Part shown: piece by piece, positions 5,205 to 64,000 of the stretch
How the letters are laid out: every line of letters starts with the position of its first letter
How positions within the stretch are numbered: the first letter of the stretch is position 1
NCBI GenBank assembly: GCA_022361155.1
Contig: JAKSBK010000210.1
Coordinates: forward strand, 2,364 to 66,363
Direction: 5' to 3'
Length of the DNA: 64,000 nt
DNA from: Pseudomonadota bacterium
Lineage (GTDB): Bacteria > Myxococcota_A > Polyangia > Polyangiales > JAKSBK01
Notes under the pieces: generated by a model
Databases searched by the model: none
The model's input: the letters and a program-made list of their open reading frames with translations, nothing else
What the model was told of the DNA's origin: nothing
Position numbers and translations under genes: made by a program

Positions 5205-5208
5205 GCTC

Positions 5209-10621: not shown

Positions 10622-10647
10622 GGAGCAGGGTGCGCGGCTGGCACGCG

Positions 10648-12495: not shown

Positions 12496-12501
12496 AAAAA
12501 T

Positions 12502-12652: not shown

Positions 12653-12762
12653 CGTGAATGCCTACCTTTCCTATCGTGGTAATATCGGGGTGACCCGGAT
12701 CAGCCCGGGCCCCGAGCGTCCAAGACGTGGCCGAGCTGCGTTTGATCCAGGGCGGCTGACCC

Positions 12763-14148: not shown

Positions 14149-14160
14149 GCAGCTGGCGGG

Positions 14161-16686: not shown

Positions 16687-16755
16687 ACATATGCAGAGTG
16701 ACCCACAGGCGCTGGACTTGTCATGGAGCGGATTTCGGACGAAGGAGACACTCAC

Positions 16756-19700
16756 ATGGTGATCGGCCAGGTTCCAGGCGTTGATAGAAGAGCAGCCGCG
16801 GTGAAACAGCTGGATCGCCCTGCCGCGCGGGAAGCGGGCGTCATCTGGACGCTTGCATCTGTATTGTTTTGCGGCTGCAGCGTCAGCGACGATGGCGCGG
16901 GCATGCTCACGATCGTGAGCCCAGCGCCCAACCAGATGTTCACACCGGCGGACGATATCAGTCCGGACCAGCCTGGCTTTCAGACGCTGGTGGCGGTCAC
17001 GTCCACGAATCTCACCAGGCAGGCGAGGATCGTCTTGCATGTCGACGCCGGAGACCCGGTGCTCGCGAGGCTGCTCGAGGGGGTGGGCGCGCCCGACGAC
17101 GCGGGCAACGCCATGATCATGGTGACATTGCCCGCCGGCACGCACGAGCTGAGCGCGGAGACGTTCCTCGGCAGCGTTCGGTCCGCGGGTGTGGTGTACA
17201 CGGCTCCGGACCTTGGGGGTGGTCCGCCGATCGGGCCGGGAGGATGTCCCACGGCCTTGTTCGTGACACCGCTGCCGCCGGCCATGGGTGCCACGCAGCG
17301 GACGCTCGGACCGGGAAGCGACACCGTGGGCGAGGGCTGCGGGATGACCTTTGCCACCACCGTCGCGCTGGCGACCAACGCGCTCGACGGCGTGGAAGGG
17401 CAGCTGTTCGTCAACGGCACGCCGGGGCCGGTGGTCGCGGCAGCGGGTGGGGCGCTGGTATTCGACGACGTCGAGCTCGGCAACCGCGGCACGTTTCCGA
17501 ACCTGCTCGAGGTCAGGTTCAACCTCGCGGGCGTCGTGTGCGATGCGCTGCGCTATCCAGGCGATCTGCTGGTCGACTGCGAAGGCGCAAGTTGCGAGCT
17601 GACCGCACCACGCACCGATACGGGTTTTCTCAACCTCGAGGACGATGTGTCGAGCATGCCCGGTTTTCAGACGGACTTTCAGGTCACGACCGACAGCTCC
17701 GCCGCGAACCAGCCCGTGCGGCTCATCGTGGACGGCAATTTCAATACCCCCCCCATGATGAATCCGGTGGTCAACGGGCCCCAGGCCATTGCGACTTTCG
17801 GAGGCGTTTCACTTGAAGACGGCGGCCACACGGTCTTTGCCGAATGCCGGGACGACGCTGGCAACCTCACCAGGTCCGCTGCCGGGCGCTGGGTCGTGGA
17901 CACCGTGCCCTGCACCCTGGGTATCGATTCGCCTGCGGCGGGCACGAGCTTCATCGAGACCGACGACGTCAACAGCATGCAGGCCGGGCTGCAAGTCGAG
18001 CTTGAAGGCACCCTCATGGGCGACGGCTGCACCGGGGTGCGGGCAGCGGAGTGCACCGGGATCGAGGGCGTTCCGTTCCAGACGCACGATGGATCGCGGA
18101 GCGTGAGCGCCAATGTCACGCTGTCGAGTAACCGTATGCAGTCCCTGTGCCTCGAAGTGCGTGACGTGGCTCGCAACGTTGCCCAGGAACGAGTCGCCGT
18201 TGAGCGCCAATCAGATGCACCGAAGCTCGCCTTCGCCGTTCCGGACCCTCAGAACCCGGATGCATTGCGCTTCAACTCTGCGGGAAACACGTACGAGGGC
18301 CAAAGCTATGTGGCGGACCTTGACCCGACGACACCCGCTTGCGACGTGCGATTCGAGGTGCTGTGCGACGAGGTGGGCCGCCCCGTTACACTTCATGTTG
18401 AAGCTACGGGTGTTCAGCTGTCGGGCGGCAGCGCCGACTGCGTCGCGGCGCCGGCCATGCCCATGGGATTCCGAGGTCGAGCCACCTTCGCTTCAGTAGC
18501 CGTCGCCGCGGGGACCTCGCCCACCGTCAATATCGTCGCCCGTCAGCAGGGCGGCCGGCTGGAAGGCCAGTCAAGCCCGCTCACGCTGAACCACGACTGT
18601 CAACCACCGGATGTACTTTTCTACGAGCAGGATCCAGTGGACGGCGCCTTGTGCCAAGCATTCACTCCTTCGACCTCAGGGGGCGAGATCACCAAGAATG
18701 TTCGGGTATTCTCGCCGGTTGCAGCGCTTGAGCTGAAGATCTTCCGTACCGATGGCATGACGCCAGCCGTGCCGGTTTTCACGTCAACGACGCCCGTTCC
18801 CTCAGGCGCCTCACAGTTTCTGTTCCCGAATGTGAGCTTCCAAAACGGAGGAACCTACTCGGTGGTGGTGGAGGCTACCGACGGTGCTGGCAACCTCGGC
18901 ATCACCCCCCCGTGTCAGGTGCAGGTCGTGGATATCCCCACCCTTGCGATTACGGCCCCCATGAACGGGGCGGCATTGGATGCCTCGGGGGGATGCGCGG
19001 GTACGGGGATGTTCAATGTTCAGGTCGAAGCAACTACAGACGCGGCCGCGGGCTCGTTGGTCGAGATTCAGATTGCGGACCTTCCCGTCGAGACCACGTC
19101 CGTCGGCGTTAGTGGAGACATCAGCGAGTGCGTGGCGGCCAAGCAGGGCGAGGTTGATATTCGAGTGAGAGTTTCGGACACAGCAAGAGGTGGTGCGTTC
19201 GCCGAGCAGGTGCTGACTGTGACCATTGACAGCCTTCCGCCGCCCAACCCGATCACGGATCTGACTCTTCTGGATCCAACAACGACGCCTGCTACGGAGG
19301 ATGACAATCCGCGCGCAGGCACGGTGCGCTTTCGCTGGACCGCGGTGGATGATGCGGCAATGGGTCAGCCTCTTGCAGGCTACGAGCTTCGCTGTGTTGT
19401 GGCGCCGGGGCAGATCGCCGACGAAGCCAGCTGGTCGGCGGCTAGGTCCTATACGCTGGGCGTGAACCCAGCGGCGGGCGGGAACGTGCAGGAGGCGAAT
19501 GTTTCGGGGTTTCGGATGGGGGAGCCTGTGCGGTGCATTCTTCGAGGGGTGGACGGAGGAGGCCAATTGACGCCTCTACCTGCTGCGTCGGACCCGGGCT
19601 ACAACGTTCCCGTCGCTCTGAGCTTTCGTGACCACCAAGTCCAGCTTGCCGGCTCGGCTCGGCTCGGCATGCGCATGGTAGCGTTGGGAGACGTCAACGG

Positions 19701-21066
19701 GGACGGCCGCCCCGATCTCATGCTCGGTGGCGATGGCGAGGCGTATCTGTACTTTGGCGCTCGGGCCGGAGATCGCTTGCCGGATGCCCCATCGGTGACT
19801 TTCACGGGCTTGCCGGACTCGATGACAGTCCAGCATGGAGCCTTCGGTGAGCAAATCGCGGGCCTCGGAGACTTCAACGGGGACGGTTGTGCTGATTTTG
19901 CTATTGGAGAAGGTGCTGGGCTCGGCTCAACGCAGGGCGGGGACATGGGACGAGTCTATGTGTTTTTCGGGCGTGATGCTGATCCAGGCAAAGCCTGTCC
20001 CGATGAGTGGCCCACCGCTATCGATGTACCGGCGGGTTGCGGCGTGGCGGGACGGGTTGACGTGTGTTTGGTATCGAGTGAGTCCCTTGCCGTGCTGGGT
20101 GGGCGGGTAGACGCTGTCGGTGATTTCGACGGCGACGGTCTCTCGGACCTGGCAACGAGTGCCCGATTCGCCAGCGGGTTCGAGGGCAGAGTCTACGTTG
20201 TGCTGGGCCGGAAAGCCTATGCATCCGGTACCAGGATCGTCGTTCCTGGAACGCCCGGAATGGCGGGGAATGACCCGGATGGCTTTGTTTTCGCCGTTTC
20301 CGGAAGGTACCAGTTCGGTTGGGGGGTGACGGGGGTCGGTGACTTGCAGGGTGATAACCGTTCCGACCTCGTAATCACGACTCTGGGTCGTGGCCGAACC
20401 GGTACCCCCTGGTCGGTCTACCGTGTATTTGGCCAGACCTACAGTGCTGGCGGCGGGCTGGTCGCCGTGGATCAGAGTGAGCTGCTCGAGATCGCTTCGG
20501 GACCGCCAACTGGTAGCCCAGTTCGGGTCGCAGCGTTGGGTGACGTTGTCGGCGGTTCTGGACCCGATCTGGGGCTGTGGTTCCTCGCCGGGGGCCTCGG
20601 TCAGGTGCAGGTGTGGCCCGGCGACGGGCTCGGAAGCTTCGACCCCAGCCAAGCGGTTGTGCTTGACAACGCGGGCGGCGCCAACACGGATTCCCTCGGC
20701 GTGGCGATGGCATCGGTTCGCGGCCCCTTTTCCTCGAACGCAGACATTGATGGTGACGGCAAGGGCGAGCTGTTCATCGGTAGCGCCGGGTTGGGTGGAC
20801 ATCCCGGTGCCGGGCTGCTGTTCTATGCCGACAACGTCGCGTCGGGCGCACAGTCCGGCGCCATCGGCACAGACGTGGCTTCTGTTAGGCTACGGCATGA
20901 CATGGCGGGCGAGCCCCTAATAGTTGCGGGCAATTCCAGCGACAATCAGAACGTATGGGGCTTCGTCCAGTATGTAGGTGATATAAACGGCGACGGTTTC
21001 CCTGATCTCGCATTCGGCGACCCCAAATCGAACTCGGGTCGCGGCCGGGTGCAGATACTCTACTAG
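16756..21066 (+). CDS. Giant (about 1436 aa) putative lipoprotein with Ig-like repeats and a C-terminal FG-GAP/VCBS beta-propeller
   Basis: GAAGGAG SD 8 nt before ATG 16756 and a lipobox-like LFCGC. Repeated GDxNGDGxxD motifs (GDVNGDGRPDL, GDFNGDGCADF, GDFDGDGLSDL, GDINGDGFPDL). Confidence 0.75.
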   Translation: MVIGQVPGVDRRAAAVKQLDRPAAREAGVIWTLASVLFCGCSVSDDGAGMLTIVSPAPNQMFTPADDISPDQPGFQTLVAVTSTNLTRQARIVLHVDAGDPVLARLLEGVGAPDDAGNAMIMVTLPAGTHELSAETFLGSVRSAGVVYTAPDLGGGPPIGPGGCPTALFVTPLPPAMGATQRTLGPGSDTVGEGCGMTFATTVALATNALDGVEGQLFVNGTPGPVVAAAGGALVFDDVELGNRGTFPNLLEVRFNLAGVVCDALRYPGDLLVDCEGASCELTAPRTDTGFLNLEDDVSSMPGFQTDFQVTTDSSAANQPVRLIVDGNFNTPPMMNPVVNGPQAIATFGGVSLEDGGHTVFAECRDDAGNLTRSAAGRWVVDTVPCTLGIDSPAAGTSFIETDDVNSMQAGLQVELEGTLMGDGCTGVRAAECTGIEGVPFQTHDGSRSVSANVTLSSNRMQSLCLEVRDVARNVAQERVAVERQSDAPKLAFAVPDPQNPDALRFNSAGNTYEGQSYVADLDPTTPACDVRFEVLCDEVGRPVTLHVEATGVQLSGGSADCVAAPAMPMGFRGRATFASVAVAAGTSPTVNIVARQQGGRLEGQSSPLTLNHDCQPPDVLFYEQDPVDGALCQAFTPSTSGGEITKNVRVFSPVAALELKIFRTDGMTPAVPVFTSTTPVPSGASQFLFPNVSFQNGGTYSVVVEATDGAGNLGITPPCQVQVVDIPTLAITAPMNGAALDASGGCAGTGMFNVQVEATTDAAAGSLVEIQIADLPVETTSVGVSGDISECVAAKQGEVDIRVRVSDTARGGAFAEQVLTVTIDSLPPPNPITDLTLLDPTTTPATEDDNPRAGTVRFRWTAVDDAAMGQPLAGYELRCVVAPGQIADEASWSAARSYTLGVNPAAGGNVQEANVSGFRMGEPVRCILRGVDGGGQLTPLPAASDPGYNVPVALSFRDHQVQLAGSARLGMRMVALGDVNGDGRPDLMLGGDGEAYLYFGARAGDRLPDAPSVTFTGLPDSMTVQHGAFGEQIAGLGDFNGDGCADFAIGEGAGLGSTQGGDMGRVYVFFGRDADPGKACPDEWPTAIDVPAGCGVAGRVDVCLVSSESLAVLGGRVDAVGDFDGDGLSDLATSARFASGFEGRVYVVLGRKAYASGTRIVVPGTPGMAGNDPDGFVFAVSGRYQFGWGVTGVGDLQGDNRSDLVITTLGRGRTGTPWSVYRVFGQTYSAGGGLVAVDQSELLEIASGPPTGSPVRVAALGDVVGGSGPDLGLWFLAGGLGQVQVWPGDGLGSFDPSQAVVLDNAGGANTDSLGVAMASVRGPFSSNADIDGDGKGELFIGSAGLGGHPGAGLLFYADNVASGAQSGAIGTDVASVRLRHDMAGEPLIVAGNSSDNQNVWGFVQYVGDINGDGFPDLAFGDPKSNSGRGRVQILY

Positions 21067-21086
21067 TGAAGCCTTGGAGAATCCAA

Positions 21087-21254
21087 ATGAAGGACGAAGT
21101 CCCTGGGCAGAGCGAACCACCTCAGGACCCAGCTAGGCGGCCCTACGAGCCACCGGCGATCGAAGAGAGCGCTCAATTCAGCGTGCTGGCCTTGGGCTGC
21201 GATATTCAGCCGGGGGTTTGCGAGTTCCCCGATACGCCCAGTGCGAGCCTTTAG
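21087..21254 (+). CDS. 55-aa acidic/Pro-rich peptide with two C-terminal Cys (candidate RiPP precursor)
   Basis: GGAGA SD 6 nt upstream of ATG 21087. Sequence MKDEVPGQSEPPQDPARRPYEPPAIEESAQFSVLALGCDIQPGVCEFPDTPSASL. Starts 20 nt after the FG-GAP gene stop and is followed by an S26 peptidase gene. Confidence 0.45.
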   Translation: MKDEVPGQSEPPQDPARRPYEPPAIEESAQFSVLALGCDIQPGVCEFPDTPSASL

Positions 21255-53544: not shown

Positions 53545-54489
53545 TCAGGACCTGTCGGGACCCTGCCGGGCCCTGGCGATCGCCTCGCGCGCCTCGTCAA
53601 AGGCCTCGGGGCTCTCGACGCTGACCCGCGGCACCGCCCTGTCGATGCGTGCGAGCAGCGAGCTCAGCACGCGCCCGGGCCCGATTTCGACGAAGACCGA
53701 GGCGCCTGCTTCGAGCATGCGCTCGATCGACTGCTGCCACAGCACCGAGCGGCTGACCTGACGCGCAAGGGCGTCCCGGGCCGCCTCGGCACTGCGCACG
53801 GTCTCGGCATCCACATTGACGACCACGGGCCAGGCCGGGTCACGGAAGTCGGCCTCGCGCAGATGCGGCGCGAGCCGCGCTTCGGCCGGTCGCATCAGGC
53901 TCGAGTGGAAGGGCGCGCTCACAGCCAAGGGCCTGAGCTTCGCACCGAGCGCCTTGATCTTGATCCCCGCCCGTTCCACAGCCGCGGCCTCGCCCGCGAT
54001 GACCAGCTGCCCCGGGCAGTTGTAGTTGACGACTTCGACCGTGCCGCCGGTCTCGGCGCAAGCTTTCTCGATCGCGCTCGCGTCCCCGCCGAGAGCGGCT
54101 GCCATGGCGCCTTGACCCACGGCAACCGCCTCTTGCATGTACTGACCTCGGCGGCGAACCAGCTGAATCGCGTCCTCGAAACGCAGCGTGCCCGCAGCCA
54201 CGTGCGCCGAGTACTCGCCCAAGCTGTGCCCCGCCGCCAGGTCGCAGCGTTCGCCGAGGGCTCGAAAAAGTGCGATCGAAGTCGCAAGCAGCGCGGGCTG
54301 CGTATTGACGGTAAGGCGCAGCTGCTGTTCGGGTCCACGAAAACACAGCTCGGAAAGCGACTCGGACAGCACATCGTCGGCGCTGGCGAACACCGCCCGC
54401 GCCGCCGCGCTGTGCTTGGCCGCCGCCTCGCCCATACCGACTTTCTGCGACCCTTGCCCGGGAAATAGAAAAGCAACTTTGCCCATCAC
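53545..54489 (-). CDS. fabD: Malonyl-CoA:ACP transacylase
   Basis: FLFPGQGSQKVGMG and GHSLGEYSA active-site motifs. Confidence 0.9.
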   Translation of the reverse strand: MMGKVAFLFPGQGSQKVGMGEAAAKHSAAARAVFASADDVLSESLSELCFRGPEQQLRLTVNTQPALLATSIALFRALGERCDLAAGHSLGEYSAHVAAGTLRFEDAIQLVRRRGQYMQEAVAVGQGAMAAALGGDASAIEKACAETGGTVEVVNYNCPGQLVIAGEAAAVERAGIKIKALGAKLRPLAVSAPFHSSLMRPAEARLAPHLREADFRDPAWPVVVNVDAETVRSAEAARDALARQVSRSVLWQQSIERMLEAGASVFVEIGPGRVLSSLLARIDRAVPRVSVESPEAFDEAREAIARARQGPDRS

Positions 54490-54607: not shown

Positions 54608-55093
54608 TCATTGCGAGTCAGGGGGGGGCGTGCCCGGAAGCGCTCCCTCGATCACGTAGCTGAGCGCCTGAACGACCTGTTCCGGGGTTTGCGCCACGAC
54701 GGCTGCTGCGGCGTCCACCTCTTTGAGCGCGTGGGTCAGGCTGGGATCGTGCAGCACGATGACGGACTTGCCGAGCGCCGCTGCATAGCCCGCGTCAAAG
54801 GCTGCGTTCCATTGCCGGTACTTCTCCCCGAAGCGCACGACCACCGCGTCGGCGCGTCCGAGCAGCGTTCGGGTGCGCACCGAGTTCAGCTTGGCACCCT
54901 TGTGGTCCTTCCAGAAAGCCTCGCTTTCGGGGCCCAGAATGCTCACGCCGCAGTTGTCGCTGCTGGCGTGATCGGTGATCGGTCCGGTGAGCGTGATCGG
55001 AAGACCCGCACGCTCGACGGCGGCCTCGATGCGTTGTCGCCAGTCGGTGTGGATCTCTCCGGACAGGTAGACTTGCCAGTGCTCCTTGCTCAT
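54608..55093 (-). CDS. YtoQ-family protein (nucleoside 2-deoxyribosyltransferase-like fold)
   Basis: VYLSGEIHTDWR...RFGEKYRQWNAAFDAGYAAALGK matches the recalled YtoQ pattern. Confidence 0.65.
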   Translation of the reverse strand: MSKEHWQVYLSGEIHTDWRQRIEAAVERAGLPITLTGPITDHASSDNCGVSILGPESEAFWKDHKGAKLNSVRTRTLLGRADAVVVRFGEKYRQWNAAFDAGYAAALGKSVIVLHDPSLTHALKEVDAAAAVVAQTPEQVVQALSYVIEGALPGTPPPDSQ

Positions 55094-55100
55094 GTTGACC

Positions 55101-56216
55101 TCATACGAAATTCAGGTGTTCTGGCGGCGCTCCCCTCGCAGCACGCAGCTGTACCAAGCCCTTCATGTGGGCATCAAGGGTCTCGTTCACCTTGTGCTGA
55201 AGGCACAGCGAGCCGCACATGACCTGCGCGTTGAACTCGGGCGAGGCGAGGTAGTTCATGACTTCCCAGTAGCGGTCGCTTGCCCAGATGTCCTTGAAGC
55301 GTTGCTCGCAGATGTTGCCGATATGCAGCTTCTTGTAGCGTTCGTTGAAGAGCATCCCGCAGGGGGCCACGAGCCCCGACCCGGAAAGCTGCAGCAGAAA
55401 AGGGGGGCCGTAACAGCGCTGATAGGATCGTTTGCCCTTGGCCTCGATCTTCGACCACTTTACCACGACCTTGTATTGCTGATCGGACATCGCTTCGGCT
55501 TCCCGAAAGCGGTCGTACAGGGACTCGTAACCCTCGTAGTCGACACCGAGCTCGCCGTCCTCGCTGTCGGAGCAGTGCTTGAGCACGAGGTAGTCGGGCT
55601 GAAGCCGCTTGCCCAAGCGGGCCAATGGCAGGATCTGATCGCCGTAGCCGGGCATGACGACCATCTGCATGCCGATGGTGACCGCGAGGCCGTTGCGTCG
55701 CTTGATCTCCATCATGTCGCCGATGTTCTGGCACACGCGATGAAACCACGCTTCCTTCACGCCCATGATTTGCGCGTAGCGCCGCGGCTCACCAGCCGAG
55801 ATGTTGACGCGCAGGTAGGTCAGGCAAGGCAGCAGCTCTTCGAGCTTTCGGCGCGTAAGCGCCAGGCCGTTGGTGCCCACAGCCATGGCCAGGCCGAGCT
55901 CATGACCCCTGCGCACCGTATCGACGAAAACCGGGGAAATCGTGCTCTCGCCGTCCGAGACCAAGCTGATGGCCTTGACCCCGATGCTCGCGCAATCCTC
56001 CAAGAAATCGAAGATGACCTGGCGCGTGATCGGCCTGCGGTCGTTTTCCTGAAGCATGGCGTAGCAGTATTCGCAAGCGAAATTACAGGCCCGCGTCAGC
56101 GCCATGTCGATCGTGATCGGTGCGATGCGCTCGCCGCGTTCCCAAGCGGCGACGCGCTCCATGTGCCACGCGATCTTGGTACCGTCCAAGAGCAGCTCAC
56201 CGGCTGGCGCCGTCAC
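55101..56216 (-). CDS. Radical SAM enzyme in the sugar-modification cluster
   Basis: LTRACNFACEYCY (CX3CX2C) and a C-terminal Cys-containing auxiliary region. ATGA-type coupling to the upstream gene. Confidence 0.8.
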   Translation of the reverse strand: MTAPAGELLLDGTKIAWHMERVAAWERGERIAPITIDMALTRACNFACEYCYAMLQENDRRPITRQVIFDFLEDCASIGVKAISLVSDGESTISPVFVDTVRRGHELGLAMAVGTNGLALTRRKLEELLPCLTYLRVNISAGEPRRYAQIMGVKEAWFHRVCQNIGDMMEIKRRNGLAVTIGMQMVVMPGYGDQILPLARLGKRLQPDYLVLKHCSDSEDGELGVDYEGYESLYDRFREAEAMSDQQYKVVVKWSKIEAKGKRSYQRCYGPPFLLQLSGSGLVAPCGMLFNERYKKLHIGNICEQRFKDIWASDRYWEVMNYLASPEFNAQVMCGSLCLQHKVNETLDAHMKGLVQLRAARGAPPEHLNFV

Positions 56217-57415
56217 GGGGCCTCCTGCAACAGCGCCAGGCGCCGCAGCTTGTTGCGATCCTTGAGCTCGGCCAGCAGCACTTCAAGCCGCGGGTCGATC
56301 TCATCCCGGATGGCGCGCTCGATCCTCATCGCGAGCCCTGGTTTCTCGTGTTCGGCAATCAAACGGGACATGCGCAGCACCACGCGCACGTCGAGCTGGA
56401 TCGCGAGGACCTCGATACGCTCGGGATGGTAGCCCAGGGGCCCGGCGTTGCGGGTGATGCTGCGCCGCAACGAAGCCAGCCGTTCGGGCTCGGACATGGC
56501 GAGCCAGCCGGCGCCCGGCAGCCGATCGTGGAAATTGGCGACCTCGTGGTTTCCCGTTTGCTCGCGGTAGCGGGCCGCGGCCAGCCGCAGCAGCTCGAGG
56601 GGCAGCGCGAACGCGGGATCGGCGGCTTGTGGTGTGACGATGCCAGGCACGGGGGGCGGCTGCGCGCGATCGCGCAGCGTGTGCTCGAGCCGGATCACGC
56701 CGTGGTCGCTCGCTTCCTGAAGCGGCAGGCCGAGACACAGCGCACACAATCGGTCCAGCAGGGCCCGCTCGAGGGCGTTCCGCGTGCCCGAGAAACACGC
56801 GTCGCGGACTACCTGCGCCCGCGTGTCCACCACCAGCCACAGCGCAACCGAGCCGACCTCGCCGCGCACCGTGAGCGAGCCGGTGCTTTCCTTTGGCGCG
56901 CGCTCGAAGCCGATGCGCGACAACCCTTCGCCGATCGCCTTGGCATAGACGTCCCCCATGCCAAGGCGACGCCCGACGTGCGCCGGGCGTGCCTGGGCGG
57001 TCTCGGGGGCGCCGTGGAGAGCCGTCCTGGTAGCTGCCCGCTCCCGTGGGCGCTGCGGGACCGATCGCCGCGGCGCACGAAGCGCATCCACGGCGAGCAC
57101 GACGCCGTCCTCGAGTCGCACCAGGCGCACCCGGCCGAACTCGCGGGCTGCTTGTTCCAGCTCCGCCAGGTCCATGCTGGCGGTGGTGGCAGCGCCCATG
57201 CGCAGCGTCAGCTCGGGCCTGCCGAGCTCGGCCGCCGCGTCCAGCATGTTGGCGACGCTGCGCATCGGATCCTCGTCGGGTACCCACAGCTCCAGGTAAT
57301 CCGCGCTCGGGCCGAAGCCGCGCAGCTTGGTGGCGAGCCCGCTACGGTAGTCTGCACAGAGCTGGTCGAAGTCGAGTGCGGTCCCCAGCCGATCCTGATC
57401 CAGCGTTTCGGTCAT
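56213..57415 (-). CDS. Hypothetical protein (400 aa) inside the sugar cluster
   Basis: Translationally coupled on both sides (ATGA at 57412-57415). No motif recognised with confidence. Confidence 0.5.
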   Translation of the reverse strand: MTETLDQDRLGTALDFDQLCADYRSGLATKLRGFGPSADYLELWVPDEDPMRSVANMLDAAAELGRPELTLRMGAATTASMDLAELEQAAREFGRVRLVRLEDGVVLAVDALRAPRRSVPQRPRERAATRTALHGAPETAQARPAHVGRRLGMGDVYAKAIGEGLSRIGFERAPKESTGSLTVRGEVGSVALWLVVDTRAQVVRDACFSGTRNALERALLDRLCALCLGLPLQEASDHGVIRLEHTLRDRAQPPPVPGIVTPQAADPAFALPLELLRLAAARYREQTGNHEVANFHDRLPGAGWLAMSEPERLASLRRSITRNAGPLGYHPERIEVLAIQLDVRVVLRMSRLIAEHEKPGLAMRIERAIRDEIDPRLEVLLAELKDRNKLRRLALLQEAP

Positions 57416-58554
57416 GCGTAGAACCCGTTGATCGTGCGGCACACGTACTCGATATCGTCGCCATGCAAGAACTGGTGAATCGGCAGCGACAGAATCCGCT
57501 GCGCCTGGCGCTCTGCAGCAGGGAAAGCGCCTTTCTTGTAGCCGAGCTCCGTTGCCGCCGGCTGTAGATGAATGGGCACCGGATAGTGGACCGCGCTGGC
57601 CACACCGCGGCTTGCCAGATGCGCTTTGAGCTCATCGCGCCGGTCCACCTGAATCACGAACGTATGGTAGGTGTCGATAGCTTGCTCGCGCCAGGCGGGA
57701 TGCTTGACGTGGCGATCATCGAGCAGCTCGAGGTAGCGGCGCGCGTTGGCACGCCGGTCCCGAAGCACGGCATCCAGTCGCTGCAGGCGATACCGGAGCA
57801 CCGCCGCCTGCAGGTTGTCCAAACGCGAGACCACGCCCCATTCGAGCGCGCTGTCGCGGTCCACGAGGCCATGGTCCCGCAGCCTGCGCAGCCGGGTGGC
57901 CAGCTTCGCGTCGCGGCACAAGACGAAACCCGCATCGCCGACGGCATTGAGGTTCTTTAGCGGGTGCGCGGAAAAGCATCCGAGGTGTCCGAAGGTGCCG
58001 GCAGGCTGACCTTTCAGCGTGGCTCCAAAGGCCTGAGCCGCGTCTTCCACTACCTTCAGATCGTGGCGCCGGGCTATCTCCACGATGGCGGGCATATCGG
58101 CGCTGCGACCCGTGAGGTGAATGGGCAGGATCGCCGCGGTGGCCCGGGTGATGGCCGCCTCGATGCCCGAGGGATCGATGTTCTGATCCTCTCCCACGTC
58201 CACGAAGACGGGTCGCGCGCCGGCGTGCACGATGGCGGCCGCCGTGGAAATAAAGGAGTTGGGCGCCGTGATGACCTCATCGCCCGCGCCGATCCCCAGG
58301 GCACGCAGCCCGAGCAGCAGGGCGTCCGTTCCCGACCCCACGGCGACGGCGTGCTCGACTCCAGAGCGGCGCGCGACGGCTGCTTCGAAGCGAGCGATCG
58401 CTTCGCCACCCACCCAGCAGCCCGAGGCGAGCGCCTGTTCGATGGCGGCCATGAGACCTTCACGCTCCTTGCGAAACTGCGCCCGCAGATCGATATAAGG
58501 GATCCGGCGCCACTCTCCGGGGGCTTGGCGGTCTGTTCTAGCTGCTGCCCGCAT
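57412..58554 (-). CDS. DegT/DnrJ/EryC1/StrS-family aminotransferase
   Basis: IPYIDLRAQF..., GSGTDALLL, and FSAHPLKNLNAVGDAG (PLP Lys). Confidence 0.85.
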   Translation of the reverse strand: MRAAARTDRQAPGEWRRIPYIDLRAQFRKEREGLMAAIEQALASGCWVGGEAIARFEAAVARRSGVEHAVAVGSGTDALLLGLRALGIGAGDEVITAPNSFISTAAAIVHAGARPVFVDVGEDQNIDPSGIEAAITRATAAILPIHLTGRSADMPAIVEIARRHDLKVVEDAAQAFGATLKGQPAGTFGHLGCFSAHPLKNLNAVGDAGFVLCRDAKLATRLRRLRDHGLVDRDSALEWGVVSRLDNLQAAVLRYRLQRLDAVLRDRRANARRYLELLDDRHVKHPAWREQAIDTYHTFVIQVDRRDELKAHLASRGVASAVHYPVPIHLQPAATELGYKKGAFPAAERQAQRILSLPIHQFLHGDDIEYVCRTINGFYA

Positions 58555-59644
58555 AAAACTCCTTGACGGTCTTTACGACGTAGTCTTGCTGCCGGCGGGT
58601 CAGGTGCTGATCGCACGGGAAGGTAATCATGGAGGCAGCATGGCGATCCGCGACCGGGAAGGCACCGGCCCTGTAGCCGAGAAACGCGAGACCCTTCTGG
58701 CGGTACAGAGGCACCGGGTAGTGGATCTTGCACTCGATTCCCTTGTCCCGGCAGTAGCGGTACAGCTCGTCTCGATTCTGGGCGAAGACGACATAGAGAT
58801 GGAATACGCAGCGCATGCGAGCGGGGCGGGCCGGCAGGCTGATCTCCGGCAGCTGCCCTAGTTGCTCGTCGTAGTAGCGCGCGTTGTCGATCCGTTGGGA
58901 GGTGATGTTCTCGGCCTGTCCGATCAGCCAGTTGCCGACCAGCGCCTGCAGGGTATCCAGCCGCGAGTTGCAGCCCAGCAAGGCGATTTCGTCCCGGCTG
59001 GTCATGCCATGGTTGCGCAGCAGTCCCAAGGTGTTGGCGAGCTCGTCGTCGCCGGTGACGATCACTCCGCCGTCTCCCCAGACGTTCAGGTTCTTGAGCG
59101 GGTGCAAGGAGAACGCGCCAGCGGTGCCCCAAGTGCCTGCGCGGCGCTGGTCGAGCTCGCCCAAAATGGCCTGACAAGCGTCTTCGACGACGGGAAGCCG
59201 GTTCTTCGTGGCAACGGGCATGAGCTTGCGCATGTCGGTCATGGCTCCCGTGTAGTGGACGGGTACGATGGCGCGCGTCTTGTCGCTGATGACGTCTTCG
59301 ACCTGGTCGACGTTCATGCAGAAGCTGTCGTCGCAGTCTACGAACACCGGGCGCGCCCCAAGCTCGGCAATGGCCCCGGCCGTGGCGACGAAGCTGTTGG
59401 CGGCCGTGATGACCTCGTCGCCAAACCCCACACCGAGCGCTTTGAGGGAAAGCTTCAGGGCGTCGGTTCCGGAACCTACTCCAAGCGCGTGCCTGCTGCC
59501 GATGAGCTCGGCGAAGCGGGCTTCGAAACGGGCCAGCTCGGCACCGAGCGTGAAGTCACCTTGCTGCGCCAGGCTCCGTATGCGATCGAGCAGATCGTCG
59601 ATCTCCGAAAACTGCTGAGGCAAGTAGGAGTAGCGAACGTGCAT
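58538..59644 (-). CDS. DegT/DnrJ/EryC1/StrS-family aminotransferase (second copy)
   Basis: YSYLPQQF..., GSGTDALKL, and FSLHPLKNLNVWGDGG (PLP Lys). Confidence 0.85.
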   Translation of the reverse strand: MHVRYSYLPQQFSEIDDLLDRIRSLAQQGDFTLGAELARFEARFAELIGSRHALGVGSGTDALKLSLKALGVGFGDEVITAANSFVATAGAIAELGARPVFVDCDDSFCMNVDQVEDVISDKTRAIVPVHYTGAMTDMRKLMPVATKNRLPVVEDACQAILGELDQRRAGTWGTAGAFSLHPLKNLNVWGDGGVIVTGDDELANTLGLLRNHGMTSRDEIALLGCNSRLDTLQALVGNWLIGQAENITSQRIDNARYYDEQLGQLPEISLPARPARMRCVFHLYVVFAQNRDELYRYCRDKGIECKIHYPVPLYRQKGLAFLGYRAGAFPVADRHAASMITFPCDQHLTRRQQDYVVKTVKEFYAGSS

Positions 59645-59657
59645 CACGGGGCTCCGA

Positions 59658-60740
59658 TCAAAAGGGGCCTTGAAAGGCCGGATGCGGGACATCCAGCGGC
59701 AGGTCCTCGCGCTTGCTCACGAGCGTTTCGCAGACCCGCGCAACCGTTTTCTCGCTCAATCCTGCGAGCTTGCCTGCGGCGCGAGCCAGGTCGGGAGAAC
59801 GCGGATAGTACTCGGCTGCAAGGGCTCGCGAGCTGGGCGTCGGGTGCTCGGGCAAGCCCATGCGAACCGGGGCGGCCTCGAGACGGGCGAAGCAGGCTTC
59901 GGATACGCGGGCGGTGACCTCGGCACCGATGCCGAGATTCTGAAAGCCCGTGTCGACGCACAGGAGCTTGCCGGTTCGCCTGACCGATTCGTAGATCGCG
60001 CTCGGACGGAGCGGACTGAGCAGGCGCAGGTCGATCAGCTCGACCTCGCAGCCTTCCCGTGCAAGGGCATCTGCGGCCTGCAAGGCTTCGAGGGTCATGT
60101 AGGAAGTTGTGACCAGCGTCAGGTCGCGGCCCGGGCGTATGCACCTGGGCCCGTCGAGCGGCAAGGGCGTGCTGCCGGCGGGGACATGGCCTCGCACGTA
60201 GTGCACCCAGCGGTGCTCGATGAAGATCACCGGGCCGTCGTCCGCGATCGCACCAAGAAGCAGTCCCTTCGCGTCGGCAGCGCTGGAGGGCATGACCACC
60301 TTGAGCCCGGGAACCTGGGCAAACATGGCTTCGAGGCTCTGGGAGTGGGCGGGACCCTGGCCCCAGCCGCGTCCCACGATCAGGCGTACGACCAGGGGCA
60401 CTCGGTGCCTGCCGTCCGAAACGTAGTGGAGCTTCGCGGCGTTGTTGACCAGCTGTTCCATCGCAAGCAGGCAGAACTCGACGCGCTGATGGATCACCAG
60501 CGGGCGCTGCCCGAGCAAGGCCGCACCGATGGCGATGCCGGTAAACGCCGCCTCGGAAATGGGCATCTCGAGCACGCGCTCTCGGCCGTAGCGTTGCCAA
60601 AGCCCTGCGGTCGTACCGAAGATGCCCTTGGGATCGAGCGCGCCTTCGCCCATGACGAAGACAGCCGGATCGGACTCGAGCGCGATCGCCGTGGCTTCGA
60701 AAATGGCCTGAGCCGCTGTCAGCATGCGGGTTTCAGGCAT
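59658..60740 (-). CDS. ThDP-dependent 2-oxoacid dehydrogenase E1 beta / transketolase C-terminal-like subunit
   Basis: Pyrimidine-binding domain pattern (VFVMGEG..., EAAFTGIAIGAAL, GPAHSQS), then a transketolase C-terminal-like domain. Confidence 0.8.
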   Translation of the reverse strand: MPETRMLTAAQAIFEATAIALESDPAVFVMGEGALDPKGIFGTTAGLWQRYGRERVLEMPISEAAFTGIAIGAALLGQRPLVIHQRVEFCLLAMEQLVNNAAKLHYVSDGRHRVPLVVRLIVGRGWGQGPAHSQSLEAMFAQVPGLKVVMPSSAADAKGLLLGAIADDGPVIFIEHRWVHYVRGHVPAGSTPLPLDGPRCIRPGRDLTLVTTSYMTLEALQAADALAREGCEVELIDLRLLSPLRPSAIYESVRRTGKLLCVDTGFQNLGIGAEVTARVSEACFARLEAAPVRMGLPEHPTPSSRALAAEYYPRSPDLARAAGKLAGLSEKTVARVCETLVSKREDLPLDVPHPAFQGPF

Positions 60741-61728
60741 AGACCTTGGTCCTTGCATGGGCCGGGTTCGGAAAGGGAGCACGCTGCGCCGCCGTGAAGG
60801 CGGTTTCGATCTCGCGCTTCAGTTTCAGCAGCAGCTCGCATTCCAGCGCCGCGTCCCACAGCTCCCGGCGTTCGAGCCACGCCTTGAAACGCTGGATCGG
60901 GCACTGCGCCTTCCAGCGGGCGAGCTCTCCCTGAGGCCGGTAGCCCAGCTGGTCATCGCACTGGGGGCCGCAGTGCTCGAGCCAACGGTAGGTGTCGACG
61001 CACACCAGGCCCGGTCCGCCTCCGGATCGGGCGCGCTCGACAGCCTCCGTGCTCCGGCGATAAACCTCTAGTACGTCGTTGCCATCGGCGCGCCGGGCGG
61101 GCAGCCCATGCGCCGCCCCGAAACGGGTGAGCTGCCCGGACGGCTGGCGGTCATCGATGCGCGTATAGACCGAGTACAGGTTGTTCTCCACGAAGAACAC
61201 GATCGGAAGCCGATGGGCTGTAGCGAAGTTGGCGGCTTCGTGGGCAACGCCCTCTTCCAGAGCCGCATCTCCCAGAAAGGCCATGCAAACGCGGCGCTGC
61301 GCGCGTTGCCGAAAAGCGAGGGCCACCCCGACGCCGATGGGAATCGAGCTTGCCACGATCGGCACGCTGGCCAAGACACCTGCCGCGTCGTCGAAGAGGT
61401 GCATGGAGCCGCCACGGCCGCCACAGCATCCCGTGACCTTGCCGTAGAGTTCTGCCAGCATGGCCCCAAGGTCGCCTCCTTTCGCCAGGTAGTGGCCGTG
61501 GCAGCGGTGCGTACTGACGATCTTGTCGTCGGCTTGCAGCGCCCGGCAGGCACCGACCGCGCTGGCTTCCTGCCCGATCGACAGATGCACCGGGCAGCGC
61601 ATTTCCTGTTCGCCGTAGCGCCCGGCGATCGCCTCCTCGACCAAGCGAATGCGCCGCATTTGGCGGTAGACCCCGCGCAGCCCATCGTGGGACAGCCGAG
61701 CCGGGTGCTGGGGAAGCGCTTCGTGCAC
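60733..61728 (-). CDS. ThDP-dependent 2-oxoacid dehydrogenase E1 alpha-like subunit
   Basis: GQEASAVG..., GGRGGSMH, and the ThDP-binding motif FLGDAALEEGVAHEAANFA...ENN. Confidence 0.8.
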   Translation of the reverse strand: MHEALPQHPARLSHDGLRGVYRQMRRIRLVEEAIAGRYGEQEMRCPVHLSIGQEASAVGACRALQADDKIVSTHRCHGHYLAKGGDLGAMLAELYGKVTGCCGGRGGSMHLFDDAAGVLASVPIVASSIPIGVGVALAFRQRAQRRVCMAFLGDAALEEGVAHEAANFATAHRLPIVFFVENNLYSVYTRIDDRQPSGQLTRFGAAHGLPARRADGNDVLEVYRRSTEAVERARSGGGPGLVCVDTYRWLEHCGPQCDDQLGYRPQGELARWKAQCPIQRFKAWLERRELWDAALECELLLKLKREIETAFTAAQRAPFPNPAHARTKVYA

Positions 61729-61730
61729 GA

Positions 61731-62738
61731 TTAGTGCAGCCTCGCTTCTTGCATCCGTTTGATGTTGAAGTAGCGGGGATCTTCGAGGGAGTTAGGTACC
61801 TTGCCCGCCCGGAAGGCCCCCCGCAGATCGCGCACCGCGTCGGCTATGCTTCTCGTGGGGCTGAAGCCGAGCTTTGTACGCGCCTTGGCCGAGGACACGC
61901 GGTAGGAGCGTCGATCTTCGCTTGCTGTCACTCGGATGCCGACATCGGCGTCTAGGGTGTCCCGCACGGTTTCGGCGATCTCGATGAGACTCAGGTTGTC
62001 CGAGCCCACGTTGAAGATCTCGTTGTCGATCCTGCTGGCGGGCTGCTCGAGGAGATATAGATAGAAATCCACCATATCGTCGATGTGGATGTTGGGTCGG
62101 AGCTGCTCGCCACCGAACACCGTGATCAGGTTCTTGCTGATGGCGTGGTTGGTGAAGATGTTGACCGTCAGATCGAGACGCAGTCGAGCAGCATACCCGC
62201 ACACCGTGGCGGGACGGACCGTGACCGCCGTCAACCCATCGCTGCGCCTATCGTGCAGAATGTCTTCGCACAGCGCCTTGTAGCGCGAGTAGTCGGTGAG
62301 CGGCTTCGGCTCGAGCGCTTCGGTGATGTCCGGCTCGTCGCGCAGGCCGTAGACGCTCGACGAGGAGGCATACACGAAGCGTCTCACGCCCGCCTCTGTG
62401 GCGCTCTGAAGCAAGGGCTCGAAGGCATCGAAGTTGATCGACTTGCCGAGCCTGGGATCGAGATCGTAGGAGGGGTCGTTGGAAATGCAGGCGAGGTGAA
62501 CCAGGGCGTCGGCGCCGCCGAGCGCTTGCCGGACCAGTTTGGCGTCGCGCACGTCGCCCTCGACCTCTCGCAGGCGGTCGCCGCGATAGGCCCTGAAGAC
62601 GTCTCGGCCATACAGGTACAAGTCCATGACGGTTACCCGGTAGCCGGCATCCAGCAACCGCGGCACGAGCGCAGAACCCACGTAGCCTGCACCGCCGGTG
62701 ACGAGCACGTGCTCGAACAGACGTTGGCCTCGCAGCAT
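61731..62738 (-). CDS. NAD-dependent epimerase/dehydratase (extended SDR)
   Basis: VTGGAGYVGSAL Rossmann motif and YSRYK (YxxxK) catalytic motif. Confidence 0.85.
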   Translation of the reverse strand: MLRGQRLFEHVLVTGGAGYVGSALVPRLLDAGYRVTVMDLYLYGRDVFRAYRGDRLREVEGDVRDAKLVRQALGGADALVHLACISNDPSYDLDPRLGKSINFDAFEPLLQSATEAGVRRFVYASSSSVYGLRDEPDITEALEPKPLTDYSRYKALCEDILHDRRSDGLTAVTVRPATVCGYAARLRLDLTVNIFTNHAISKNLITVFGGEQLRPNIHIDDMVDFYLYLLEQPASRIDNEIFNVGSDNLSLIEIAETVRDTLDADVGIRVTASEDRRSYRVSSAKARTKLGFSPTRSIADAVRDLRGAFRAGKVPNSLEDPRYFNIKRMQEARLH

Positions 62739-63436
62739 CAGCGGGCACCGGATCCGATCGAGGCGACCGAGCCCCCCGCGTCATCGAAAATCGGCGCGCG
62801 CAGGGGCCGTCGCGGTTCTCGGCTCGACTCCGCCCCCAGCTTCCGAGTCAGCCAGCTCGTGATCAGGTGGGCGACCACGGCATGTGCTGCTTCCGCCGCA
62901 CCGTAGTCACAGACCGCGACATGAATCGAGCAGTCCGCCTCGGCCAGCGCTCGCCCGCCGTCGAAGCCGAGCCAGGCCATGCTGGTGAGCTCGAGACGCC
63001 GTGCCCACTTCAGCGCCTCCAAGACGTTGGGGGAGTTACCGCTCGCGCTGATCACCAGCAGCACGTCGCCCGCAAGCGCCAGGCCGCGCAACTGTTCGCC
63101 AAAGACGCAGGCGTAGGATTCGTCGTTAGCCCAGGCGGTCAGCGTGGCCACGTTGTCGCACAGCGAGCGCGCGCGAAAGCGCTTCGTCTGTTTACGAGGT
63201 TCGCGGCCGCACGTGGTCTTTTCGAGATCGCACGCGAAGTGACTTGCCAGGGACGCGCTGCCCCCGTTGCCTGCGACAAAGACCTGGGCGCCGCGCCGAT
63301 AGGCATCGAGGAGCACGAGCGCACAGCGCTCGATGGACTGCGCGGGGATTGCTTGGAGCGTTTCCGAAAAGGCTGCGACATAGTCGTGCGCAAATGTTGC
63401 AGGTGATGCGAGCGACTCGGATGTTGTAGGCGTCAC
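62738..63436 (-). CDS. SIS-domain sugar-phosphate isomerase (GmhA-like)
   Basis: VFVAGNGGSASLASHFACDL and LLVISASGNSPNVLEAL. GTG start overlaps the upstream TGA. Confidence 0.75.
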   Translation of the reverse strand: MTPTTSESLASPATFAHDYVAAFSETLQAIPAQSIERCALVLLDAYRRGAQVFVAGNGGSASLASHFACDLEKTTCGREPRKQTKRFRARSLCDNVATLTAWANDESYACVFGEQLRGLALAGDVLLVISASGNSPNVLEALKWARRLELTSMAWLGFDGGRALAEADCSIHVAVCDYGAAEAAHAVVAHLITSWLTRKLGAESSREPRRPLRAPIFDDAGGSVASIGSGAR

Positions 63437-64000
63437 GCGATTCTCCACTGGCCGAAGCGGCCGCTGTCGAAGTCCTTGCGGGCCGACTTCAAGCGCTCGG
63501 GCGAGTCCACGGCGCAGCGATAGCCCGCAAGCGATTGAGCCCAAAGATTGCCCGCTGCGGCCCAGCGAGGAAATGCGTCCCGCGGCAGGTCCTGCGCCTG
63601 CATTACGTCGAGCTCGTCGAGGGCGGCTTGAGACAGCACGCACAAACCGGAAAAGGCCCAGCTCCCCTCGGGATCGGCGAAGGGTGGCGCAACCCGGGGC
63701 CGCTCTACAAAGCGCTTGACGAGGCCGCGCTCGTCGACATGAGCGTAGCTGTTCGACCCGCGGCGCCGATGGACGAGCAGGGTCGCAAGCGCGCTCCGCT
63801 CGCAATGAACGCCGAAGAGCGACGCGAGATCGTGCTCGGTGAGCACGTCGCCGTAGTGGACCAGCAGCGGCCCGTCGTCAAAGTGCTCGCGCAACGCCCG
63901 CAGCGTGCCGGCCGTTCCTAGTGGACTCTGCTCGTAGCTGAAGCTGATCGCCAGGCCATAGCGCGCACCGCTGCCTAGATGGTTCCTGAACTGCTGGGCG
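63433..64000 (-). CDS. Sugar-phosphate nucleotidyltransferase (5' end outside window)
   Basis: ...YEQSPLGTAGTLRAL..VHYGDVLT... resembles the NTP_transferase domain. The open frame continues to the window edge. Confidence 0.7.
   Translation of the reverse strand, partial: AQQFRNHLGSGARYGLAISFSYEQSPLGTAGTLRALREHFDDGPLLVHYGDVLTEHDLASLFGVHCERSALATLLVHRRRGSNSYAHVDERGLVKRFVERPRVAPPFADPEGSWAFSGLCVLSQAALDELDVMQAQDLPRDAFPRWAAAGNLWAQSLAGYRCAVDSPERLKSARKDFDSGRFGQWRIA

Follow-up and report, generated by a model that had tools for sequence, protein, structure and literature searches.

Attachment of a two-carbon unit to a nucleotide-activated sugar by thiamine diphosphate (ThDP) chemistry has been described for several sugar pathways. 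Enzymes of the YerE type are single-chain proteins that resemble acetolactate synthase. The paulomycin proteins Plm8 and Plm9 (Pau11 and Pau12) and the avilamycin proteins AviB1 and AviB2 belong to pathways for antibiotic sugars. Plm8 and Plm9 form an E1 alpha/beta pair by which, as proposed, a two-carbon chain from pyruvate is attached to C4 of a nucleoside diphosphate (NDP)-keto-sugar; the same paper refers to the avilamycin genes, studied by genetics, and to YerE, studied by biochemistry and a flavoprotein according to the title of its reference 38 (PMC4802897). In the case of YerE/YerF (yersiniose) and ErwE/MyGE, ThDP-dependent acyl addition to a nucleotide-4-keto-sugar of a surface glycan is followed by tailoring, and acetyl branches on sugars are starting points for reductases, transaminases and oxygenases (PMC9306805). 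The DNA considered here is a stretch of 64 kb with 65% G+C (the window) from a Pseudomonadota bacterium (contig JAKSBK010000210.1), which at 55101-64000 on the minus strand carries a gene cluster combining an E1 alpha/beta pair with heptose-type activation genes, two aminotransferases, a radical S-adenosylmethionine (SAM) enzyme and a NifU-like protein. The cluster probably makes a modified nucleotide-activated seven-carbon sugar.

The E1 pair of the window resembles Plm8/Plm9 and the avilamycin proteins in being encoded within an NDP-sugar cluster that lacks E2 and E3 genes (PMC4802897). The first-pass annotation of this DNA had named the avilamycin two-carbon genes as E1-like precedents, and they are indeed cited in that paper alongside Plm8/Plm9. 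The known pairs serve deoxythymidine diphosphate-2,6-dideoxy or pentose-derived antibiotic sugars of Streptomyces, whereas the pair described here occurs with heptose-type genes in Myxococcota and Alphaproteobacteria and is fixed together with a radical SAM enzyme, a NifU-like protein and usually two aminotransferases. The YerE type shares the principle of acyl addition to a nucleotide-keto-sugar, but acts on a cytidine diphosphate-3,6-dideoxyhexose, in contrast to the two-subunit E1 and heptose-like sugar proposed here. A literature search for the cluster itself, or for heptose, ThDP and radical SAM chemistry together, found no characterisation.

Nine co-directional minus-strand open reading frames (ORFs) fill 55101-64000. 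All are intact except the sugar-1-phosphate nucleotidyltransferase gene, which lacks its N-terminal part at 64000, so that the cluster is cut by the window edge, as had been noted. The gene identities and the order given by the first-pass annotation, from nucleotidyltransferase through a SIS isomerase, a short-chain dehydrogenase/reductase (SDR), E1 alpha, E1 beta, two DegT-family aminotransferases and a 400-aa protein to the radical SAM enzyme, are upheld by Pfam and NCBIfam, although none of the nine proteins belongs to a curated NCBIfam equivalog and every specific match is below its cut-off. The overlapping or near-abutting stops and starts that it had described are likewise borne out: all junctions are overlaps of 1, 4, 8 or 17 nt, or gaps of at most 13 nt. 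The nucleotidyltransferase and SIS genes meet in GTGA, with the SIS start overlapping the upstream stop, the SIS and SDR genes in TGATG, and a 2-nt gap separates SDR and E1 alpha. The E1 beta ATG lies inside the E1 alpha gene, giving an 8-nt overlap (ATGCCTGA). Between E1 beta and the first aminotransferase gene (DegT-A) the gap is 13 nt when the ATG at 59644 is used; this start yields the 368-aa product that is also annotated on a second contig from this organism, whereas with the ATG at 59692 the genes would overlap by 35 nt. DegT-A and the second aminotransferase gene (DegT-B) overlap by 17 nt, and the last two junctions are ATGA (DegT-B and the NifU-like gene) and GTGA (the NifU-like and radical SAM genes). 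No promoter-like sites were found inside the gene block, terminator-like sites showed no excess (8 observed against 5.8 +/- 2.8 expected by chance), and the window contains no Rfam families. The G+C content at third codon positions is 0.77-0.84 in every cluster gene, the same as in the rest of the window.

Much of the cluster is conserved in other genomes, its core of E1 pair, radical SAM enzyme and NifU-like protein ranging from marine myxobacteria to Azospirillum. Loci were searched for with homologues of the NifU-like protein and the radical SAM enzyme as seeds, and the order and orientation SDR, E1 alpha, E1 beta, DegT-A, DegT-B, NifU-like protein, radical SAM enzyme are kept in 14 independent full-length loci (L005, L006, L008-L011, L013-L015, L017, L021, a plasmid of Azospirillum oryzae KACC 14407, L028 and L029). 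By their record titles, eight of these are from Myxococcota (Nannocystaceae, Nannocystales and two metagenome-assembled genomes (MAGs) labelled 'deltaproteobacterial') and three from alphaproteobacterial MAGs (Rhodospirillaceae, Magnetovibrionaceae and Hyphomicrobiales); L006 is from an untyped genome, and L028 and L029 are metagenome contigs. The cultured carrier is A. oryzae KACC 14407, where the block lies on a 318-kb plasmid (NZ_CP054615.1) and is followed by a NUDIX gene and three glycosyltransferase genes. Four more loci hold the block in part, the contig or the match being cut. Since the same gene order is found in many unrelated genomes, the arrangement is not a chance feature of one genome. 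The E1 pair is common to all full-length copies, at the same position and in two phyla. When the window proteins are compared with the MAG loci, identities are 67-84% for the radical SAM enzyme, 57-75% for E1 alpha and beta, 57-69% for DegT-A, 56-63% for DegT-B, 56-64% for the SDR and 32-49% for the NifU-like protein. Across phyla the radical SAM enzyme, with 75-84% identity, contrasts in conservation with its putative partner, the NifU-like protein, with 30-49%.

Not every copy is complete or contiguous. The metagenomic locus L024 (module at 1741-12227) carries the block without either DegT gene, together with a methyltransferase and a glycosyltransferase gene, so that the DegT pair is an optional sub-unit; the NifU-like/radical SAM pair is another sub-unit. 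In two Nannocystaceae MAGs (L012, ~331-8841; L018, ~665-8856) DegT-A and DegT-B are separated by an insert of about 8.5 kb, with opposite-strand genes for a glycoside hydrolase of family GH18, a flavin amine oxidase, a PRK/uridine-kinase-like protein and proteins without assignment. The opposite strand of L024 (13245-21122) encodes another E1 pair, which is divergent (36% and 44% identity) and accompanied by a DegT gene, two SDR genes, a B12-binding radical SAM gene and a GHMP kinase gene.

The E1 alpha gene (60733-61728, minus strand; Pfam E1_dh, E 1e-62) encodes the ThDP motif GDA-x26-NN at residues 153-183, and its product is closest among solved structures to human pyruvate dehydrogenase (PDH) E1 alpha (E 5e-41), with a weak Pfam match to DXP_synthase_N besides. 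E1 beta (59658-60740, minus strand; Pfam Transket_pyr and Transketolase_C, E 8e-30 and 7e-28), the orthologues of which align from residue 1 of the called start, keeps the cofactor-activating Glu and His128 when aligned to Geobacillus E1 beta (1w85_B, E 5e-60). From these residues both proteins are predicted to be catalytically competent E1s. Their best NCBIfam matches are the PDH E1 alpha and E1 beta models, with scores of 272 bits against a cut-off of 394 and 269 against 321. A neighbouring E2/E3 complex, which the first-pass annotation had named as the finding that would speak against a sugar role, was not encountered: up to 10 kb on either side, no gene for an E2 (lipoyl acyltransferase) or E3 component is present in the seven syntenic loci with called genes (L005, L006, L023, L024, L025, L028 and L029), the window itself being cut upstream. 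Judged by its genomic setting, the E1 pair is predicted to be dedicated to the sugar pathway.

Several genes point to a heptose as the sugar that is activated. The SIS isomerase (62738-63436, minus strand, GTG start; Pfam SIS_2) is GmhA-like: up to E 1e-5, it matches no solved proteins other than phosphoheptose isomerases and the related DiaA, and isomerases take the first six places (top match 1x92, E 6e-22), and it scores 93-95 bits with the NCBIfam GmhA models (cut-offs 209-320). The nucleotidyltransferase, of which the C-terminal ~188 aa are encoded at 63433-64000 (minus strand; Pfam NTP_transferase, E 3e-10) and the N-terminus beyond the window edge, has as best NCBIfam matches mannose-1-phosphate guanylyltransferase and MurU types, all below cut-offs; in L005, L023 and L029 the corresponding gene encodes a complete orthologue of 243-256 aa. 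These three loci, nearest to the window in architecture, have genes for a haloacid dehalogenase (HAD)-type phosphatase, a PfkB kinase and a second SDR (SDR2) upstream of the nucleotidyltransferase, and we expect the same three genes just beyond position 64000. The Myxococcota carry the activation set SDR2-PfkB-HAD-nucleotidyltransferase-SIS ahead of the block, whereas the Alphaproteobacteria and one untyped genome carry SDR2 and an HldE-like gene, with or without SIS; in the alphaproteobacterial HldE-like fusion the adenylyltransferase domain comes first. The best models for the upstream genes in the syntenic loci are heptose-7-phosphate kinase, heptose 1,7-bisphosphate phosphatase and HldE (PfkB kinase 111 bits against a cut-off of 345, HAD phosphatase 132 against 178). 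Because two different activation systems precede the same block, a shared heptose substrate is the simplest explanation. The PfkB kinase of L023 (86-1606) has 506 aa, as compared to 343-350 aa in other Myxococcota-type loci (e.g. L005, 1582-2634; L029, 396-1427). Its kinase domain spans only residues 180-481 and the N-terminal ~170 aa are unmatched; this extra region could be a degenerate adenylyltransferase left from an HldE-like fusion.

The SDR gene next in line (61731-62738, minus strand; Pfam Epimerase, E 7e-42) fits such a substrate. The best solved relative of its product is 6vo6 (E 1.4e-40), which, as its deposited name suggests, is Cj1427 of Campylobacter, a guanosine diphosphate (GDP)-glycero-manno-heptose C4-dehydrogenase. 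Cj1427 oxidises GDP-glycero-manno-heptose at C4, the bound NADH being recycled with alpha-ketoglutarate (PMC10680097). The window protein and six orthologues share the motifs GGAGYVG, SSSSVYG and YxxxK, whereas the Asp-Glu pair typical of 4,6-dehydratases is missing; from these motifs the enzyme is predicted to be an extended SDR of the GalE/Cj1427 type, i.e. an oxidoreductase or epimerase, and not a 4,6-dehydratase. The suggestion, already made in the first pass on the basis of the GmhA-like protein, that the sugar is heptose-derived is strengthened by the SIS relatives, the syntenic activation genes and the closeness of the SDR to 6vo6.

Both aminotransferases, DegT-A (58538-59644, minus strand; Pfam DegT_DnrJ_EryC1, E 8e-96) and DegT-B (57412-58554, minus strand; same family, E 2e-105), belong to the pyridoxal phosphate-dependent DegT family. 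Dehydratases of the ColD type have a His in place of the Schiff-base lysine, which is retained in DegT-A (SLHPLK) and in DegT-B (SAHPLK); the two are therefore classed as transaminases. DegT-A has its best solved relative in 3uwc (E 1e-116), while the nearest solved relatives of DegT-B are 3uwc, 7b0d (a glutamine-scyllo-inositol transaminase), QdtB and 2oga. When the ranking is confined to solved relatives that have been characterised, the C3 aminotransferases QdtB, 2oga and WbpE come out ahead of the C4 enzymes ArnB and perosamine synthase. Conversion of a 4'-keto to a 4'-amino group on a heptose is known from septacidin (PMC9978623).

The radical SAM enzyme (55101-56216, minus strand) matches the Pfam families Radical_SAM and SPASM (SPASM E 1.5e-6), the C-terminal domain being of the SPASM/Twitch type. 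Its CX3CX2C motif (C44/C48/C51) is invariant in 121 sequences, and four C-terminal cysteines (C268, C286, C334 and C338), sufficient to hold one auxiliary cluster, do not vary even among paralogues that are 21-43% identical. The best 120 database matches are 75-99% identical and all without assigned name. A profile of the family reaches SkfB, DesII (E 3e-17; E 1.6e-5 with the single sequence), 5v1q (deposited as 'Radical SAM'), PqqE, the auxiliary domain of BtrN (E 2e-13), MoaA and cytosylglucuronate decarboxylase. Three of these, DesII, BtrN and cytosylglucuronate decarboxylase, have sugars or cyclitols as substrates; by the scores, the kinship is at the level of the superfamily.

The gene directly upstream of the radical SAM gene in every locus examined (here at 56213-57415, minus strand) encodes the 400-aa protein that had been listed as an unknown. 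It indeed has no Pfam or NCBIfam match, but it can now be recast as a NifU-like protein with degenerate ligands. The only PDB fold matches of its AlphaFold2 model (mean pLDDT 82) are IscU/SufU chains (Foldseek E 4e-5, target TM 0.70-0.76 over ~135 columns), and secondary structure places the IscU-like region at about residues 155-290; weak NifU_N matches appear in 3 of 27 homologues (best E 0.01). The three cluster-ligand cysteines of IscU are missing from this domain, in which only C224 (~90%), inside a helix, and H238 are conserved. A C-terminal alpha-beta-beta-alpha-beta unit resembles the Nfu domain by order of secondary structure only and lacks CXXC. The N-terminal domain, modelled alone (AlphaFold, pLDDT 83), gave no significant PDB fold match (best E 0.08) and carries an invariant LRGF...WVPxxD motif. 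The predicted structure argues for a protein that is NifU-like but not a NifU: it would share the IscU fold with the NifU/IscU scaffolds and differ from them in the extra N-terminal domain, the lack of ligand cysteines and the constant pairing with one particular radical SAM enzyme. Candidate roles are those of a radical SAM partner, a substrate carrier or a catalyst. The family is large. A word-indexed search gave about 30 homologues, and a full profile search 1074 clusters at 50% identity, of which 495 at E <= 1e-30. The window protein itself corresponds to protein MJD61_07945 of a MAG labelled 'Proteobacteria bacterium', identical over 98% of the ORF; its records are on short contigs (2-5 kb) that break off within the cluster, and exact-sequence look-ups of two window proteins gave no match.

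Taken together, it is fairly probable that the window holds the downstream three-quarters or so of an operon with some 12 genes for the activation and tailoring of a heptose, or of a sugar phosphate closely resembling one. The sequences establish which genes are present, their coupling and shared order, the lack of E2/E3 neighbours, the motifs and the fold of the NifU-like protein; substrate, step order, regiochemistry and product fate are inferred from them. In the scheme that we favour, the GmhA-like isomerase, the PfkB kinase, the GmhB-like phosphatase and the nucleotidyltransferase would make an NDP-heptose, which the Cj1427-like SDR would convert to an NDP-keto-heptose by oxidising a hydroxyl of the ring, with C4 as the likeliest site. 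The E1 alpha/beta pair, working without E2/E3, would be a ThDP carboligase: pyruvate, or a related 2-oxo acid, would lose its carboxyl group, and the two-carbon acyl-anion equivalent so formed would be joined to a sugar carbonyl. The two lysine-bearing DegT enzymes would turn two carbonyls into amines, and the radical SAM enzyme, probably aided by the NifU-like protein, would act once on the sugar by hydrogen abstraction. If BtrN and DesII are taken as guides, a secondary alcohol may be oxidised to a ketone, or a dehydration or deamination may take place; either could provide the second carbonyl, and the radical step may also deoxygenate the sugar. The outcome would be a diamino heptose, C2-extended or C2-branched, for a surface glycan.

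Parts of this scheme have parallels elsewhere. The capsular heptose pathway of Campylobacter jejuni likewise uses a GmhA-type isomerase, a nucleotidyltransferase and an SDR (the solved enzyme nearest to ours, 6vo6), with C4 oxidation preceding tailoring (PMC10680097), but it continues with epimerases and a C4 reductase where the present cluster has E1, DegT and radical SAM genes. In the L-heptosamine pathway of septacidin (SepI/SepJ/SepA/SepG), C4' oxidation is followed by transamination to a 4'-amino-heptose (PMC9978623); unlike the pathway proposed here, it tailors a heptose that is already on the nucleoside, and it has one aminotransferase, no ThDP enzyme and no radical SAM enzyme. The occurrence of a radical SAM enzyme beside DegT aminotransferases recalls BtrN/BtrS of 2-deoxystreptamine and DesII of desosamine biosynthesis, although those systems lack a NifU-like partner and the similarity of the radical SAM proteins is at superfamily level only. 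The logic of BtrN and DesII is that the radical SAM enzyme creates or removes a carbonyl or amine next to the DegT step.

A number of observations weigh against the proposed scheme. All heptose-pathway matches in NCBIfam stay below the curated cut-offs (GmhA 95 against 209-320, and the kinase and phosphatase scores given above), and some other ketose phosphate could be what the enzymes really act on. The residues kept in the E1 proteins are those of ordinary E1 enzymes and do not tell a carboligase from a dehydrogenase component, and the likeness to AviB1/AviB2 and Plm8/Plm9 is drawn from published descriptions of those proteins. The relatives of the DegT enzymes hint weakly at amination at C3, while the analogy of the SDR is with a C4 enzyme. 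The DegT-less module of L024 makes amination optional, and implies that the role of the radical SAM enzyme is not simply to feed a second transaminase. Operons of the Myxococcota type (the window, L023 and L029) have no neighbouring glycosyltransferase gene.

Alternative functions have to be considered for the E1 pair in particular. One serious alternative, which we nevertheless consider unlikely, is linear chain elongation, in which a DXP-synthase-like E1 joins the two-carbon unit to a sugar aldehyde, for example at C7 of a heptose; the aldehyde would arise by radical SAM oxidation or diol dehydration, and the resulting nine-carbon aldose with a CH3-CO-CHOH end would then be aminated by the DegT enzymes. 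ThDP enzymes generally favour aldehyde acceptors and radical SAM diol dehydratases acting on aminoglycoside sugars exist (AprD4); E1 alpha has a weak DXP_synthase_N match, and the E1 and radical SAM genes stay together in L024, as would be expected if the latter enzyme prepared the acceptor of the former. No such aldose is known, however, the SDR beside E1 is of the ring-C4 dehydrogenase type, and E1 pairs of sugar clusters have been documented solely in the C4 branching of keto-sugars (PMC4802897). If the pair were instead an ordinary metabolic E1 for pyruvate, acetoin or a branched-chain 2-oxo acid that happens to lie among sugar genes, with E2 and E3 encoded elsewhere, its PDH-type best matches, its catalytic Glu and His128-beta and the cut upstream of 64000 would all be accounted for; the scores below the PDH equivalog cut-offs, the translational coupling to SDR and DegT genes, the position kept in 14 of the 14 full-length loci from two phyla and the lack of E2/E3 genes within 10 kb in the seven loci checked make this highly improbable. 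Use of the E1 pair without formation of a C-C bond, either to give acetyl-ThDP for N-acylation or to decarboxylate a sugar-derived 2-oxo acid, is hardly more attractive. The seven-gene block has no N-acyltransferase, and amino sugars of glycans are usually N-acylated, but L024 retains E1 without the DegT enzymes, L006 and L028 have separate acetyltransferase genes near the module, and E1-mediated N-acetylation has no known precedent.

Other explanations concern the radical SAM enzyme and the destination of the product. An IscU-fold protein coupled to a radical SAM enzyme with an auxiliary-cluster domain brings to mind sulfur insertion, with a thiosugar as product and the NifU-like protein rebuilding a sacrificial auxiliary cluster as NfuA/IscU do for LipA, and cluster repair by Nfu/IscU is known for sulfur-inserting radical SAM enzymes; yet the IscU-like domain lacks the three ligand cysteines and has only C224, in a helix, the putative Nfu-like part lacks CXXC, and the module has no cysteine desulfurase gene, so that we regard this as very improbable. 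It is also conceivable, if rather unlikely, that the product is a diffusible or intracellular small molecule, such as a nucleoside-type natural product, a signal or a cofactor-like compound, instead of a glycan building block. ADP-heptose feeds septacidin-type nucleosides, the radical SAM enzyme is unusually conserved across phyla, a nucleotide-handling gene follows it (YtoQ in the window, NUDIX in L025 and L028), and the Myxococcota-type operons of the window, L023 and L029 lie among unrelated genes without a glycosyltransferase. On the other side stand the glycosyltransferase, flagellar or nonulosonate genes that adjoin the module in L005, L006, L024, L025 and L028, and the related E1 and DegT pairs in an O-antigen island of Coxiella, discussed below.

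In the window, the radical SAM gene is followed after 7 nt, with GAGG upstream of the start, by a YtoQ-family gene (54608-55093, minus strand; Pfam Nuc_deoxyri_tr3, PF11071, E 5e-64; NCBIfam YtoQ_fam above cut-off) and, after a further 118 nt, by an acyltransferase/FabD-type gene identified with Pfam (53545-54489). The first-pass annotation was thus right in placing YtoQ and fabD just downstream, and the YtoQ gene is probably co-transcribed with the cluster, but both genes are outside the conserved unit. Loci from other genomes (L005-L022) gave no YtoQ match at E <= 1e-10, the sole other copy being on L001, from the same organism. The genes further downstream have unrelated housekeeping functions (a LolA-like protein, NTP_transf_5, an ion channel, RF-1 and GTP cyclohydrolase II). 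The gene right after the radical SAM gene encodes a nucleotide-handling enzyme of which the family varies by lineage, YtoQ here and NUDIX in the two ADP-type loci read for this gene (L025, 15112-15687; L028, 11130-11636). It may clear 5'-deoxyadenosine or process the NDP-sugar.

The surroundings of the module in other genomes give some indication of its use. Glycosyltransferase or flagellar genes adjoin it in L006, L024, L025 and L028. In L005 the module stands back-to-back with a NeuB/cytidine monophosphate-nonulosonate-type cluster (12328-21185), and in L006 it lies beside the flagellar genes FlgK and FlaF (1-2083 and 15306-15665); these neighbours hint at a use in surface or flagellar glycans in some hosts. 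Searches of mobile elements showed the NifU-like protein on the A. oryzae plasmid only (72,556 plasmids) and no homologue of the radical SAM enzyme in 50,697 phage records. A paralogue of the radical SAM enzyme with 42% identity is encoded on plasmid pDCAR1 of Solidesulfovibrio carbinolicus (L026, 101156-126238), in the neighbourhood of many SAM methyltransferase genes, further radical SAM genes, a gene for an MptE-like protein and a 'transketolase C-terminal domain' gene. The MptE-like protein is presumably of the Maf type, and we take the region to be a possible flagellin-glycosylation island; it may represent a more distant relative of the same tailoring logic.

A lead of a different kind comes from the solved relative of the DegT enzymes. 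The structure 3uwc is that of a Coxiella burnetii protein, 99% identical to P0294, and the corresponding locus (L027; GCA_002247155.1, contig NOLM01000012.1, 26637-47791) contains an adjacent DegT pair, one member of which is 3uwc, an E1 alpha/beta pair, a C-methyltransferase gene, a GDP-mannose dehydratase gene and glycosyltransferase genes. Identities to the window proteins are 48% (DegT-A), 40% (DegT-B), 42% (E1 alpha) and 47% (E1 beta), below those of the module orthologues, and the gene order differs from that of the module. We infer that this locus is the CBU0688-0698 part of the O-antigen ('virenose') island (~CBU0674-CBU0698) that is deleted in the avirulent Nine Mile II. No radical SAM or NifU-like gene is present in the 21 kb of the island that were examined, CBU0678-0687 being outside that stretch; the two Coxiella proteins without assignment whose genes flank the DegT pair were considered as relatives of the NifU-like protein and rejected (hhalign probability ~0.1%). 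The island also holds a second GmhA-like gene, SDR genes and CBU0678, which is HldE-like with reversed domain order and needed for phase I lipopolysaccharide (LPS) (PMC5843353). This gene has been reported as acquired from Alphaproteobacteria (PMC5423948), and the kinase linked to the module in Azospirillum has the same reversed HldE domain order. The Coxiella E1 genes have been treated as pyruvate dehydrogenases for the supply of acetyl-CoA (PMC5423948). The comparison made here suggests that they may have a role in sugar tailoring instead, which is to be taken as a lead and not as a finding.

The cluster thus appears to be of a known kind, nucleotide-sugar tailoring with ThDP-dependent transfer of a two-carbon unit, an assignment supported by the comparisons above, and it is set apart by the predicted heptose-type substrate, the fixed radical SAM/NifU-like pair and the broad environmental spread. 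E1-type C-C chemistry on sugars has so far been tied to deoxysugars of actinomycete antibiotics. Here it would occur in a fixed and widespread block for heptose tailoring in Gram-negative lineages, in which ThDP chemistry is joined to a highly conserved, uncharacterised radical SAM enzyme and to a NifU-like protein without cluster ligands. A literature search for the LPS structure of A. oryzae gave nothing useful. As a cultured carrier, strain KACC 14407 makes genetics, glycan analysis and in vitro reconstitution possible. More tentatively, and with a good deal of doubt, the product may be a sugar of an undescribed type, either an NDP-activated nine-carbon diamino aldose or an aminoethyl-branched heptose, with the radical SAM and NifU-like proteins forming a new two-protein catalytic unit and with the same chemistry operating in the Coxiella island. 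The reason why CBU0678 is needed for phase I LPS has been called unclear in the literature, and the E1 genes of the island have been read as ordinary pyruvate dehydrogenases; if a novel sugar is indeed made, the chemistry encoded by the environmental clusters would also lie behind unassigned genes of an O-antigen island that C. burnetii needs for virulence.

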